Shown here: positions 47,588 through 54,007 of the stretch, piece by piece
Position numbering within the stretch: the stretch's first letter is position 1
Layout of the letters: every line of letters starts with the position of its first letter
Assembly: GCF_058153355.1 (NCBI RefSeq)
Contig: NZ_CM177019.1
Strand: one strand, 5' to 3'
Length of the DNA: 64,000 nt
The notes under the pieces: model-generated
Told to the model about the DNA's origin: nothing
Databases searched by the model: none
The model's input: the letters and a program-made list of their open reading frames with translations, nothing else
Program-made: the position numbers and the translations under genes

Positions 47588-47917
47588 ATGAGCAAAAGAG
47601 ACGACCCGCAGTTGAGGGTACGCATACCAGAATTGCTAAAAGAGGCTTTGGAGAAGAAAGCACGGGCTAATAAGAGAACACTGACCTCTGAGATCGTTAG
47701 CCGGTTGGAATCTACTATTCTTCAGGACAAATTACTTCATACATCTAGGGGGTTTGAGGAAGCTGCTGATGAGATTCTCATACTCAGGGATCTTCTCGAG
47801 AAACTTAAAACAACGTACCATCGAGAGTATCAGGCCGAATGGGTTTATGAAAACAAATACGAGCTTATTGAAGCGATGGAAAAACTTAAGAAGTTGCTAA
47901 ATCCTGAGAATGAATAG
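47588..47917 (+). CDS. Arc/MetJ-type ribbon-helix-helix DNA-binding protein
   Basis: 109-aa ORF; N-terminal SKRDDPQLRVRIPELLKEALEKKARANKRTLTSEIVSRL is Arc-like RHH. Confidence 0.7.
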   Translation: MSKRDDPQLRVRIPELLKEALEKKARANKRTLTSEIVSRLESTILQDKLLHTSRGFEEAADEILILRDLLEKLKTTYHREYQAEWVYENKYELIEAMEKLKKLLNPENE

Positions 47918-48062
47918 TGGATTCATCCTCTAAACTTTTACGTAACCGCCGGGTGATTTCGGCGGTTAGTGTTCTGTCGTTTTCTCTGGAAATTTTTTCC
48001 AGTGCGTCTTTCAAGTCTTGCGGGATGCGTACCCGCAATTGTGGGTCATCACGTTTACTCAC
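47886..48062 (-). CDS. Second Arc-like RHH protein (paralog, GTG start)
   Basis: Unlisted 58-codon ORF VSKRDDPQLRVRIPQDLKDALEKISRENDRTLTAEITRRL; GGAGG SD; GTG overlaps VRR-NUC stop; 3' end antisense to 47588..47917. Confidence 0.5.
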   Translation of the reverse strand: MSKRDDPQLRVRIPQDLKDALEKISRENDRTLTAEITRRLRKSLEDESTIHSQDLATS

Positions 48063-48834: not shown

Positions 48835-51762
48835 TTAATCCTTACGGTAGTGGTACGCCTCAAAACCGCCAGCGTTCAGTGGGATATCGGGCGCCCATTC
48901 GGGGTTAGTGGAGAGAAGCGCGGAAAGCGCTTTATCGTTGAAATCTTCTGTGTCAGGTGCTTCGGTGATCACCTCGTCGTGTACCGTCAGCACAATGCTG
49001 TAACCGGCATCTTCGATAAGCGGCATGTTTCCGGCCAGAACGTCGCGGGCGGCCGCCTGGGTGACGTTCTCTACCAGCTTTCCGCCGTAGGTTTTGAGTC
49101 GTTGCCATTTACGCGAATAAGAGTTAACACCCATGTAGGTGATATTCCCTTTTTCGATAACCGGAGACGGGTAGCATACAGCGCGTCCGGATGGTAGCTG
49201 TATGCGCAGCCACGCGCCATCGCGGCGGATTTTAAGATAACCGCAATACAATGTTTTTTGCGGTGTGGCGATTGCAGTGCGGATGGTGCGCTCCAGTTCG
49301 TACCAGAAATCGCAGGTCGCCGGGTGCGCCCTGCGCCAGAGACGTTTAAGTGAGTCGCAGGCGATAAATACCCGTTCAGAAAGGCCGTAGGTTGACTTAC
49401 GTTTAACCGATTCGTAGTACCAGCTTTTCGCCTCGCGGATAACATCGCGGGGAATGTTTGGCAGTGCGGCGTTCGCCAGCTCGTCGAGATCGAGACTGTA
49501 AACCAGTGCAAAAGTGATGAAGGCCGACACACCACCACCGTACCCGCAGTTGTGAACGATTAAATGTCCTGAGTCGGTTTTAATCGTGAATCTGTTTCGA
49601 GGCCCCGCATGTGCAATGTCGTAAACATCGCTCCAGCTCGTCGATACGTTTTTGCAGGTCTGCGATTTTTCTTCTGTTGCGGTTATTGTCTGCTTTGGAG
49701 ACGAACTGGATATTACCCGGTTCGTAGCCTTTGTTATTGTCGATGCGATCCATTTCCAACTTTGGGTCATTAAACCCTTTGATTTCCCTGACGTGTAGCA
49801 AAAAAGCTCTTTTATCTTCCTGCCATAGCTGACAAACGTAGATCCCCCGACCGCCGTAGTTGTGAAACAACCTGTTGGTGGGTTTATGGCAACGGCTGAT
49901 TGCGGCAGACAATCGGTTAAGTAGCCTGCGACGGGTTTCGTCATCTGCAATAGCATCCGCATAGCATAAGAATTTTTTACGATACTCGTTATGCTTTTTC
50001 TTTGCGCAAATGTTACATCGGGTACTTTTTCCTTTAAGGAGATTGCTGATTGTTGCGGTGTGAGGCATTGCACCACATTTGCATTTGACAAGTATCCTTC
50101 GGTCTTTTCCGGGTACTTTTTCCAGTTCTTTGATAACGGTAAGTTCTCCGAAGCAAGTTCCAGGCTTTGGTGAAGCGTATTTTTGTTTAAAGCGATAAGG
50201 TTTGCCAGCTTCCATCCAGTAGGGGTTAGCACCTGGTGATCCGGGGTCATTTTTGCTCCGTCCAGTGATATTAAGGCTTTGTACCCCCTGTAAATCAGTC
50301 CTTCGTGTTTTACCCATTCTTCTCCGTCCCATAACAAATCCGCGCCCGAAATACTAACAAGCGGCTTATAGCCTTTATCGGTGAGCACTAAAGTATCCGG
50401 AGCTATGCAAGCCAATTCCAGCACTTTACCTATCTGGCGCTGGTCTTTGGTGACGCGCTCAACTTCAATTCCGTAAGCTTTTGCATACGCCAGTTTATAT
50501 AAGTCCGGACCCGTTCCGGCGTCGTACTCTCTGAATGCATTCAGTTTCCATTCTTCTCCCGCCAGCCATGCCAGCATACGGCCTTCAATGTTCGACAAGT
50601 CACTTACCACCAGTTTTTTACCTGTTGGCGCGATAATGCAGCCACGTAACGCTGAACTGGTTAGTTCCATGATATTGTCAAACAGCAGGTCTGCACATCC
50701 GGCTTTCAGTGCTTCGATGCCTTCGTCTATTTGTTCCTGTTTTAGTGAAGGGCGGGGAAGATTCTGGGGCTGGAATAGCCGTCCGGCCCAGCGCCCGGTA
50801 CGTGACGCCCCGCAGAACTGTAGCGTACCGCGTAAGCGCCCGTCGTGGCTTACGCCTTTCATCAGTGCCTTGTATTTACTGGTGCTGGTAGTACTGGCTT
50901 GCTGGCGGATAGCCAGCAGTTCTTTCACGGCAGATGGTAAATCGGGGTCGGCTATACGACGTTCCAGGGTACTGCGTTGCATGTCTGGTAGCTCCACACC
51001 GTAGGATTCAACGATGTGCTTAATCAACGCGTCCCGTTGTGTGGCTGCCTGCACTTCGCCATCAGTCATTTCCTGTGTACGCTTTGCCAGGCGTTTTTGC
51101 TCCTGGTCTACCGCTTCGATCGCAGCGCGCGCGAGTTGAATGTCCATGCAGACGCCCCGGTCGTTGATCTGCTGATCACGATGCCAGAGCGCCAGTTCTG
51201 TCCCCTGATAATTCCACTTCGGCAGACGTTTATAGACTTCGCGCATTGCCTCGATATCCAGCCCGGCGTAAGCAACAAAGCGCCGCCATTCTTCCGGGTG
51301 GGTTTTACTGGTGGCCCGACGCAGTTTGCTGTTTTTCGGGCGTGGCTTACAGAACAGCTGGATCAGCGCTTTACCTTCTTTGTCCTTCGCTTTGTCTTGC
51401 GGGACGCCGAGTATTTCGCAGAGTTCCCCCAGAGACCCCGGGAGGCCGTGCGCCAGCGCCTGCACCATTGTGTCGCGCCAACGTTCGACTGGCGGTGCCA
51501 GTCGCGGCATTGCATAACGCAGGACGGTGCGGTCGAAGTGAGAGTTATGAAAATAAAGCAGGGTCTCAGGGGCTGCGATTGCTTCGTATAAGCCGTGTGG
51601 AATACCACCACCGGCAGTGATATCCCACACGTTTACGGGCCCGTCGTTGATAGCCCATGCGAACAGCATCACTTCAACGCCTTCGGCATACGCATGGGTA
51701 CCGTTCGTAATAGGGATTTCGCAATAGGTTTCCAGGTCGCCCCATAGAATGTTTTCAGACAA
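48835..51762 (-). CDS. Family-A DNA polymerase with 3'-5' exonuclease domain, interrupted by an in-frame intein
   Basis: 975-aa ORF; motif B reads [10 protein letters not shown][intein][10 protein letters not shown]; motif C VHDEV; N-terminal exonuclease domain. Confidence 0.85.
49549..50409 (-). other. Intein (287 codons) within polymerase motif B
   Basis: Starts [10 protein letters not shown], block [10 protein letters not shown], ends HLIVHN followed by Cys; central ~185 residues lack any endonuclease motif in frame. Confidence 0.75.
49580..50332 (-). CDS. HNH/His-Me finger-like endonuclease ORF in alternative frame inside the intein
   Basis: 250-codon ORF offset from polymerase frame; CKCG...CNIC zinc-finger pair and [27 protein letters not shown] resembling HNH motif. 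Confidence 0.45.
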
Positions 51763-52946: not shown

Positions 52947-53495
52947 TTAAATCAGTGCTTCAGCATCAGCACCTTCGCTGATATCGTCGAAATCGTCAGC
53001 GCTTGCCACTCCGCCGCCAGCGAATGCATCGCCGTCTCGCAGGAACTGGACTCCGCCGAGTGAGGCATTAATGCGTTTACCGAAATTATTGTCCTGTGCC
53101 CAGATATCGATAACGGCGTTTACATAGCACCCTGCATAGGGACGTCCGTCAGCCTGAATAAGTGGCGAACGATCGCGATCAAGAACAGCTGGGCGCGCTT
53201 TGTTAGCAGCATTCAGGAAGAAATTACCGGGGAAGCCTTCATACTCTGCTTTTTCATCACCATCATGCAGGCACAGATTGAGTTTTTTCTCCAGCTGGTT
53301 ATAAATGGGCTCCCACTTCTCTCCCCATTTTTCCTTCGCTACCTGCTTCATAGCTTTACGGATTTCTTCCAGTTGTGGGTGTTTGGGTGACATTAAAAAT
53401 ACTGCGGAGAAACGTGGATCGCCTTCGCCGTTTACAGTTTTAGCTTCAAACAGAGCAGGAAAAGCTAATCTCACGTTATTTAATTTAATCTTCAT
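52947..53495 (-). CDS. DUF2815-like putative ssDNA-binding protein
   Basis: 182-aa ORF MKIKLNNVRLAFPALFEAK... with acidic C-terminal tail, adjacent to DUF2800 and polymerase. Confidence 0.6.
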   Translation of the reverse strand: MKIKLNNVRLAFPALFEAKTVNGEGDPRFSAVFLMSPKHPQLEEIRKAMKQVAKEKWGEKWEPIYNQLEKKLNLCLHDGDEKAEYEGFPGNFFLNAANKARPAVLDRDRSPLIQADGRPYAGCYVNAVIDIWAQDNNFGKRINASLGGVQFLRDGDAFAGGGVASADDFDDISEGADAEALI

Positions 53496-54007
53496 TTCAA
53501 AACTCCTATAAATTCTATGGATTCTTTTTCCGCTGCTTTACGCGCAATTACAGCTTCCGCTACGGAATTAAATAGACCTAAATGTTTTTCTTTGCCGTGC
53601 AGCTTTATATAAGCTCTCCACTTATTACGGTGACGGCAAACCCCAACGGCACCGCTTTTATTATCAGAGCGTAAGGATTGGTTAATGTTATTTTCGGTAG
53701 AGGTTACAAGTCGTAGATTAGAAAGGGTGTAATTGCTCCGATTTTTGTCTATGTGATCTACCTCTAATCCCGAGGGGATACTACCGTTATGCATAACCCA
53801 GACGATGCGATGTAACAACATTTTCCGACCGTTTACACTTACGTGATAATACCCGTCCGGCCTTATATGTCCCGCTTGCTTATCTGCATATTTAGCATTC
53901 CAGGACAAATAGTCTCGCCGGGTTTTAAAATGGGTGAGCGGACGATATTTCCATATTAAAACGCCATTGTGATACCGGAAGCATTCATTTAAATATTCTT
54001 GATCCAA
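53492..54007 (-). CDS. HNH-AP2 free-standing homing endonuclease
   Basis: 171-aa ORF with LEVDHIDKNRSNYTLSNLRLVTSTEN HNH motif followed by AP2-type domain. Confidence 0.8.
   Translation of the reverse strand: MDQEYLNECFRYHNGVLIWKYRPLTHFKTRRDYLSWNAKYADKQAGHIRPDGYYHVSVNGRKMLLHRIVWVMHNGSIPSGLEVDHIDKNRSNYTLSNLRLVTSTENNINQSLRSDNKSGAVGVCRHRNKWRAYIKLHGKEKHLGLFNSVAEAVIARKAAEKESIEFIGVLK

Follow-up and report, generated by a model that had tools for sequence, protein, structure and literature searches.

The question raised by this locus is what kind of element can occupy motif B of a DNA polymerase gene and be open, on one strand, in two overlapping reading frames. The window analyzed here, a stretch of 64,000 nucleotides (nt) from contig NZ_CM177019.1 of assembly GCF_058153355.1, contains a prophage replication module in which the gene for a family-A DNA polymerase has genes for DUF2800, DUF2815, BRO-N, Ant and VRR-NUC proteins as its neighbors. 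The polymerase precursor open reading frame (ORF; 48835..51762, minus strand) matches Pfam DNA_pol_A and comprises 975 codons from a TTG start, or 944 codons in the RefSeq annotation. A first-pass annotation, made from the sequence alone, had proposed that this frame reads straight through an intein that was invaded by an HNH-like endonuclease gene in a different frame. We think, with a probability of roughly three in four, that the insertion is a composite selfish element, in which the middle of a class-1 mini-intein harbors a homing-endonuclease gene that is read from the same strand in the -1 frame.

A precise insertion in motif B that retains intein ends

The polymerase ORF has no stop codon across 49549..50409 (minus strand), an 861-bp segment of 287 codons that we assign to a class-1 intein and that ends in HN, followed by CGYGGG of polymerase motif B. 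When the region was compared by megablast with 5,426 complete E. coli genomes, 158 were found to carry this polymerase. Three of them, two isolated in Thailand and the third an O121 strain of French origin, had the segment with an identity of 99.8-100%, and exactly 861 bp were missing from the alleles of the other 155, where the empty site reads RQIGKVMELG LGYGGG. The insertion lies inside motif B and is precise, empty and filled alleles differing by exactly this length, and the earlier description of a 975-codon frame that includes a 287-codon insertion was accurate.

The insert carries the intein hallmarks that had been listed for it, namely Cys1, T55-x-x-H58 and H286-N287 followed by Cys+1. 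For comparison we used 58 non-redundant homologues, whose nested proteins are below 85% identity and which were aligned on the codons of the nested frame. C1, T55, H58, D264 and N287 do not vary among them, and conservation of H286 is 90% or higher; the +1 residue of homologous inteins is Cys or, in some, Ser. An AlphaFold2 model based on this alignment had a predicted local distance difference test score (pLDDT) of 97-98 for residues 1-92 and of 95-98 for residues 255-287, and the structured ends matched the Ssp DnaB, gp41-1, Npu DnaE and Mtu RecA mini-inteins in a Foldseek search of the PDB (probability 1.0). PHROG family phrog_93 also matched the polymerase-frame insert (E = 4.6e-19), while Pfam, run on the whole polymerase, gave no Hint or intein match. 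The models and the conserved residues support a class-1 intein with ends predicted to adopt the Hint fold, that is, a mini-intein. Its N-terminal lobe would comprise residues 1-92 (50134..50409, minus strand) and its C-terminal lobe residues 253-287 (49549..49653, minus strand), both encoded in the polymerase frame.

Between the two lobes lies a stop-free linker of residues ~93-252 (49654..50133, minus strand), which is rich in Ser, Thr, Ala and Lys, is not conserved and is predicted to be disordered; residues 94-251 had a pLDDT below 50 and no secondary structure. The S/T/K-rich, unstructured character of the in-frame center was thus as first described, although its length of ~185 residues has to be reduced to ~158. 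The poor conservation and the low pLDDT rule out a functional domain in this part of the polymerase frame. A group I intron was likewise ruled out, in view of the conserved Hint residues and the open frame. We infer that the intein is spliced at the protein level, given that its catalytic residues are invariant and that the host gene encodes the replicative polymerase of lytic Jersey-like phages.

Purifying selection switches frame within the insert

The offset frame on the same strand is open for 250 codons in its longest version (49580..50332), as had been noted. Counted from an ATG at intein nt 92, the nested ORF, which is predicted to encode a homing endonuclease, comprises 245 codons and a TAA stop (49580..50317, minus strand). 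The polymerase frame is +1 relative to the nested ORF, and the nested ORF is therefore in the -1 frame of the polymerase. Both frames of the insert find homologues at identical places, with the 122-nt offset kept, in phages that include Jersey-like Salmonella phages, Vibrio phage 97.13, Pseudomonas phage MR14 and EBPR siphovirus 2. A scan of IMG/VR yielded 362 relatives of the nested protein; among the best 80 of these 362, 78 loci had the gene nested in the same phase within an ORF of 600-1280 codons, always at polymerase motif B. The two exceptions were L087 (IMGVR_UViG_638275545_000001), an old phage sequence whose two frames have different breaks that probably reflect frameshifts, and L061, in which the nested frame has an internal stop and the polymerase frame is open.

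Among the 83 inteins that could be delimited, the polymerase frame was without a stop in all 83, and the nested ORF, of 238-261 codons, was intact in 82, which agrees with the earlier proposal that both frames are kept open. In about one-fifth of the homologues (e.g., L012, L013, L015, L036 and L072), and not in the window copy, the nested TAA spans the terminal His-Asn codons of the intein (CAT AAC), and the nested gene stops one base before the end of the intein.

The frame under selection was identified from the variability of codon positions in the 58 homologues. Between intein nt 92 and 181, the third position of the polymerase frame is the most variable, and amino acid identity is 0.50 in the polymerase frame versus 0.27 in the nested frame. 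Between nt 272 and 766 the relationship is reversed: the third position of the nested frame is the most variable (diversity 0.57-0.71), and identity is 0.30-0.67 in the nested frame versus 0.15-0.35 in the polymerase frame. Two transition zones toward the Hint lobes are conserved in both frames. These results show that the frame under purifying selection changes within the insert, from that of the polymerase in the Hint ends to the -1 frame in the center.

If the center of the polymerase frame is not conserved in sequence, then the question is whether its openness could be fortuitous. Synonymous codons were shuffled in the central 165 codons, with the nested protein and codon pool of each sequence held. 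The shuffles led us to expect 2.4 polymerase-frame stops per sequence on average, and none was observed in any of the 58 sequences. The probability of zero stops was 0.003 for the window copy, in line with the previous judgment that two open frames are very unlikely by chance, and had a geometric mean of 0.03 across sequences, although these probabilities overstate independence because the 58 sequences are phylogenetically related. The third frame showed no stop avoidance (8.8 stops observed versus 9.1 expected), and Staphylococcus phage G1 ORF058, a free-standing relative of the nested gene, has 23 stops in its +1 frame. Stop avoidance is, as these counts show, specific to the polymerase frame. 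Over its overlap with the Hint-N coding region, the nested frame had 0 stops where 1.07 were expected.

The nested protein itself has the appearance of a genuine gene product. The zinc-finger pairs and the HNH-like motif recognized at the outset are present as a CxC...CxxC zinc ribbon (C79, C81, C101 and C104; 50006..50083, minus strand), with beta-strands at residues 59-89 in the AlphaFold2 model, and as DRIDNN...N..N within a predicted HNH_3-like beta-beta-alpha core (residues 186-216; 49670..49762, minus strand). C79, C81, C101, C104, D190, R191, N202 and N211 are invariant in the homologues and N214 is at least 90% conserved; altogether 22 residues are invariant across the 58 lineages, which diverge down to ~40% identity. 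The model has a pLDDT above 90 over residues ~50-210, and the first 45 residues are disordered. PHROG family phrog_374 ('HNH endonuclease') matched residues 57-223 with E = 4.7e-37, and four more nuclease families matched with E values of 1e-7 or better, among them the HNH families phrog_2081 (1.2e-22) and phrog_3377 (6.6e-22). The match to phrog_1035 ('endonuclease VII') was weak (3e-7). AlphaFold DB neighbors are named HNH endonuclease or AP2 domain-containing protein (E = 1e-14 to 1e-10). When solved structures in the PDB were searched with a single sequence and with a profile, just a weak similarity of the zinc ribbon to Cox5b was found. The best structural match of the nested protein was PacI, an HNH enzyme with a non-canonical active site.

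A tblastn search of 50,697 phage genomes with the nested protein returned 777 records, including free-standing genes annotated as HNH endonucleases. The folded core of the free-standing relatives is 28-33% identical over nested residues ~53-217 (29% over residues 53-217 for G1 ORF058). In addition, the segment LEmDRid..GYEPGNLRF.t...N..N of the nested family profile aligns to the Pfam HNH_3 core, LEVDHIDKNRSNYTLSNLRLVTSTENNINQ, of a free-standing gene at 53492..54007 of the window. Taken together, conservation and modeling support the view that the -1 frame encodes a real, conserved protein with a zinc ribbon and a probable HNH_3-like core.

The nested gene also appears to have its own start. 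The codon at intein nt 92 is ATG in 43 of the 58 homologues, GTG in 10, TTG in 3 and CTG in 2. It uses the last base of the polymerase-frame codon that precedes the invariant W32, and this codon, when it specifies Glu, Lys or Gln, ends in A in 33 of 42 cases, compared with 34% in the flanking exteins. Upstream lies a G-rich, Shine-Dalgarno (SD)-like stretch, GTTATGGGACGGAGA (50321..50335, minus strand), which also encodes the conserved W-D-G of Hint-N. The 15 nt preceding the nested start would form a duplex with the anti-SD sequence at -6.4 to -10.7 kcal/mol in 57 of the 58 homologues and at -4.3 kcal/mol in the remaining one, against a background median of -2.6 kcal/mol for NTG sites. Farther upstream, the nested frame is closed by a stop within 20 codons of the start in 43 of the 58. 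The conserved start and SD-like stretch, the upstream closure and the lack of a conserved slippery heptamer (see below) make independent internal initiation the best-supported route by which the nested protein might be produced.

Origin, activity and expression of the nested gene

One could envision the following cycle for a mini-intein with a nested endonuclease gene. Ribosomes translating the polymerase would pass straight through the insert and produce Hint-N, a disordered 'nonsense' linker of ~158 residues and Hint-C; the Hint domain would then excise itself together with the linker, and motif B would be restored. Other ribosomes would enter this mRNA at the nested start (intein nt 92), an ATG that is conserved along with its SD-like stretch. 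Their product, of 245 residues, would consist of a disordered leader encoded over Hint-N, the zinc ribbon, a helical/AP2-like module and the HNH_3-like beta-beta-alpha core. This protein may cut intein-less polymerase alleles near motif B, and repair off the intein-bearing copy would transfer the intein and, with it, the nested gene and a little of the adjoining extein. Selection on amino acid sequence would act on the polymerase frame at the Hint ends and on the -1 frame in the center, where the polymerase frame would be constrained only against stops.

Several points weigh against this reading. Searches of Pfam and NCBIfam with the nested protein and with each of the 58 homologues were without a match, so that the HNH assignment of the offset ORF found profile support in PHROGs and not in these two databases. 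The intein assignment fared similarly in profile searches, with the PHROG and Pfam outcomes given above and a score for TIGR01445 (intein N-terminal region, NCBIfam) of 15.9 bits, under its cutoff of 24.5. The His that acts as general base in canonical HNH enzymes is an invariant Arg (D190-R191) throughout the clade, free-standing relatives included, and because of this replacement the nuclease activity of the nested protein is uncertain. Furthermore, the SD-like stretch and the NTG codon are partly forced by the W-D-G-x-x-W of Hint-N and hence are not independent evidence of initiation; the relatedness of the 58 sequences, mentioned above, tempers the stop statistics in a similar manner.

The alternative that survives best concerns the origin of the arrangement only. 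A canonical intein with an in-frame HNH domain might have undergone two compensating indels, in which case no mini-intein would have been invaded. In-frame HNH inteins are known in phages, as cited in a 2025 preprint on actinobacteriophage inteins (Gosselin et al. 2025), and in E. coli strain VL40 a single 1-nt insertion joins the polymerase frame to the HNH frame. We nevertheless consider this origin doubtful. No in-frame Hint-HNH-Hint version was found among the ~120 loci examined, and the single-indel intermediate would be lethal to the polymerase. The free-standing relatives share the whole architecture of residues ~53-217, and both the start and the stop of the nested gene lie in Hint-coding parts.

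Moreover, related inteins are found with the nested gene in either of the two shifted phases. In Streptococcus prophage Javan104 and 12 IMG/VR relatives, the HNH gene nested in a motif-B intein has the other shift. APSE-7 and 12 relatives have a related intein at a second polymerase site (GGKL/VEN..QAAARD; the slash marks the insertion point), and its nested HNH gene is likewise in that other phase. In both clades the third position of the nested frame is the most variable and nested identity is about twice the polymerase-frame identity; the more distant relatives in these searches were free-standing. The nested gene's own start and stop, the occurrence of both phases and the lack of an in-frame version favor repeated invasion of mini-inteins over a double indel, and invasion by a free-standing endonuclease gene is, in our view, the most likely origin.

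As side observations on these clades, the APSE-type loci (L092-L104) use two staggered insertion points at the second site. One of them, L093 (IMGVR_UViG_3300002732_000012), has an APSE-like polymerase ORF of more than 1151 codons that appears to hold both a motif-B and a second-site intein, and its second-site nested ORF is shortened to 169 codons.

A second alternative is that the nested protein is conserved yet does not, or no longer does, cleave DNA, and serves instead as a DNA-binding or regulatory protein or as a helper that needs another nuclease. The Arg in place of the catalytic His in every member and the lack of a Pfam HNH match are in keeping with such a role, as is the presence in this replication module, at a distance of ~3 kb, of a free-standing HNH_3-AP2 endonuclease gene of the canonical type. 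We think that this is unlikely, because the distribution of the intein fits that of a mobile element. In Guernseyvirinae, 163 of 302 phage records have the intein and 139 do not, and intein-less relatives have flanks that are up to 95% identical, so that presence is patchy among near-identical polymerase alleles.

The window copy, in turn, is identical to an intein-less E. coli allele up to 65 nt before the insertion. It then differs by 25 substitutions in 65 nt of the N-extein (50410..50474, minus strand), with a sharp boundary, and by 5 substitutions in 9 nt of the C-extein (49540..49548, minus strand), including the change of Leu to Cys at +1; elsewhere the substitution rate is 2-4 per 100 nt. 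These two tracts fit the pattern of co-conversion that would be expected of homing from a diverged donor. That related inteins occupy staggered and secondary sites, and that the free-standing relatives sit in intergenic positions typical of endonuclease genes, also argues for cleavage. The staggering at motif B was seen in the window copy and in L007, L006, L067 and L045, which use three points within four codons (KV/MELGLGY, KVM/ELGLGY and KVMELG/LGY), with the +1 residue changed to Cys or Ser each time.

A third scenario is that the nested protein is not initiated independently and that programmed -1 frameshifting or transcriptional slippage generates a fusion of N-extein, Hint-N and HNH domain. 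The nested frame is indeed -1 relative to the polymerase frame, and the window copy has a slippery heptamer, T TTA AAC (50185..50191, minus strand; intein nt 218-224), in phase with the polymerase frame and just before the coding region for the folded part of the nested protein. No other non-redundant homologue has this heptamer at the corresponding site, not even L010 and L011, the closest in sequence (65% identity), and a search for in-phase X XXY YYZ heptamers in the 58 homologues revealed none that is conserved at any aligned position. The start codon and SD-like stretch, on the other hand, are conserved, the frame is closed just upstream in most lineages, and the clades of opposite phase would need a +1 shift. 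Programmed -1 frameshifting was rejected on the grounds that the heptamer is not conserved and that of the window is lineage-specific, and we regard a fusion product as quite improbable.

That the -1 ORF is a dead relic, a once in-frame HNH domain that was frameshifted and has not yet acquired stops, is less probable still. Loss of the endonuclease is common in inteins, and L061 has its internal nested-frame stop. A decaying frame would hardly be intact in 82 of 83 copies, however, or retain across 58 lineages the most variable third position, 22 invariant residues and an amino acid identity that exceeds the polymerase-frame value two- to threefold, and its product was modeled with confidence; the conservation of double coding across homologues speaks against a relic and an artefact alike. 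The chance that a true single-frame Hint-HNH-Hint intein was disguised by two compensating indel errors in sequencing or assembly, for which one could cite the 1-nt insertion and pseudogene annotation of VL40, one of the three E. coli copies, is negligible, as this idea, recognized at the outset as one that would undo the interpretation, is effectively refuted by the identical phasing in two other E. coli assemblies (France and Thailand), more than 160 phage genomes and 78 of 80 IMG/VR contigs, by the conserved start and stop of the nested ORF, and by the gradual switch of selection through zones conserved in both frames.

The VL40 allele deserves a brief description of its own. The inserted base, an A outside any homopolymer, lies in the center of the intein at window position ~50092 (L002 position ~3510). 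From there, a short way ahead of the zinc ribbon, the polymerase frame continues in the HNH frame, and two pseudogene fragments represent the polymerase of this strain in RefSeq. The insertion is either a real inactivating mutation of the prophage or a sequencing error.

Two neighboring loci of the window were also noted. The free-standing gene at 53492..54007 (minus strand), between DUF2800 and DUF2815, encodes a canonical HNH_3 (Pfam E = 7e-19) and AP2-like endonuclease. Two of the three E. coli prophages with the intein have this gene in their annotation. Strain VL40 lacks it, as does the DUF2800-DUF2815 junction of the intein-less prophage L004, and it resembles another mobile endonuclease gene that is polymorphic for presence and absence. 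At lower window coordinates, two convergent ORFs (47588..47917, plus strand, and 47886..48062, minus strand) overlap at their 3' ends. Both are annotated as Arc-family DNA-binding proteins and have nearly the same start, MSKRDDPQLRVRIPELLKEALEK and MSKRDDPQLRVRIPQDLKDALEK; they form a convergent paralogous pair.

Implications and comparison with known systems

The polymerase intein of Jersey-like Salmonella phages, which are in wide use, carries a conserved hidden gene that gene callers have overlooked, as they miss a gene that lies inside another gene on the same strand. We would put it at an even chance that out-of-frame nesting is a stable, repeatedly evolved strategy and the standard arrangement in a large superfamily of phage family-A polymerase inteins. 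Such nesting is carried by no fewer than 360 IMG/VR contigs and, among sequenced Guernseyvirinae, by more than 160 phages; it is seen in three clades, at two polymerase sites and in both phases. On this reading the endonuclease would be a separate, weakly initiated product, uncoupled from the amount of polymerase, and many 'mini-inteins' catalogued as lacking an endonuclease would be active mobile elements. The linker of ~158 residues and the leader of 45 would then be clear examples of overprinting that creates coding sequence de novo, with a ban on stops as the sole constraint. For the study of overlapping genes the locus is a natural experiment, in which one frame is bound only to avoid stops. 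The arrangement supports a model of intein evolution in which the splicing domain came first and an endonuclease gene invaded later. It is also a tractable system, as intein-plus and intein-minus Jersey phages with ~95% identical flanks exist.

An endonuclease out of frame within an intein is of a known kind, which was described very recently. The survey of actinobacteriophage inteins by Gosselin et al. (2025, bioRxiv) reports such an ORF, and in view of this analogous case the arrangement described here is not wholly new. In the literature searched, we found no report of this polymerase-intein family, its breadth, its conserved internal start or the existence of both phases. Several features described in the preprint are shared with our case: the endonuclease ORF is on the same strand in frame 3 (-1), the host frame is open, the middle of the intein is unstructured, and invasion by a free-standing endonuclease gene is proposed as the origin. 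The actinophage protein, as presented there, is endonuclease VII-like, whereas ours has a zinc ribbon and an HNH_3/AP2-like module and matches the endonuclease VII PHROG weakly (E = 3e-7). The hosts differ, ours being motif B of a family-A polymerase in phages of Proteobacteria and Firmicutes. As a polymerase host of inteins, the text of the preprint names DNA polymerase III alpha alone, and it makes no mention of family-A polymerases or of Salmonella, Jersey-type or enterobacterial phages. No actinophage was among the organisms in the matches listed for a tblastn search with the window intein (192 matches). Also in contrast to the actinophage case, the nested ORF here begins and ends within Hint-coding parts, both shifted phases occur, and evidence of selection extends over 58 lineages, which may constitute stronger comparative evidence for a nested endonuclease maintained by selection than that preprint offers.

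A related case from the same group is the ShiLan element, an insertion in a mycobacteriophage DNA methylase gene with a hidden out-of-frame HNH gene (Arsenault et al. 2025, PMC11855218). As in our intein, the HNH ORF is out of frame in an insertion that is stop-free in the host frame. ShiLan ends in TAAC, and in many of our homologues the stop likewise overlaps the last bases of the insertion, as T/AA across the His-Asn codons. ShiLan has no splicing domain, and its insert stays in the methylase as a loop, whereas a complete Hint domain flanks the nested gene here. The fractured genes of Dassa et al. (2009, PMC2677866), in which a free-standing endonuclease gene lies between the halves of a split intein, provide another parallel: in both systems an endonuclease gene with its own start and stop, and with free-standing kin, occupies the endonuclease-insertion point of an intein. 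Fractured host genes consist of two ORFs that are repaired by trans-splicing. In all 83 homologues examined here the host gene is instead one contiguous ORF, which it can be because the endonuclease gene is stop-free in the host frame.

Finally, the nested gene can be compared with canonical inteins and free-standing endonuclease genes. In papers on Jersey-like phages and in the vB_SenS-Ent1 record, annotation of this polymerase intein has been limited to its splicing domains since 2012. Phage inteins of the canonical type, in which an HNH or LAGLIDADG domain is in frame, such as the LAGLIDADG helicase intein of these Jersey-like phages, would go through the same proposed cycle of splicing and homing; their endonuclease is part of the intein polypeptide and is made 1:1 with the host protein, whereas ours would be a separate translation product. 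Free-standing HNH/AP2 genes, such as G1 ORF058 and the gene at 53492..54007 of the window, have a homologous folded core and the HNH_3-like motif in common with the nested gene. They are intergenic and their other frames are rich in stops (23 in the +1 frame of G1 ORF058), and in both respects the nested gene, which lies within a polymerase frame that is kept open, differs from them.

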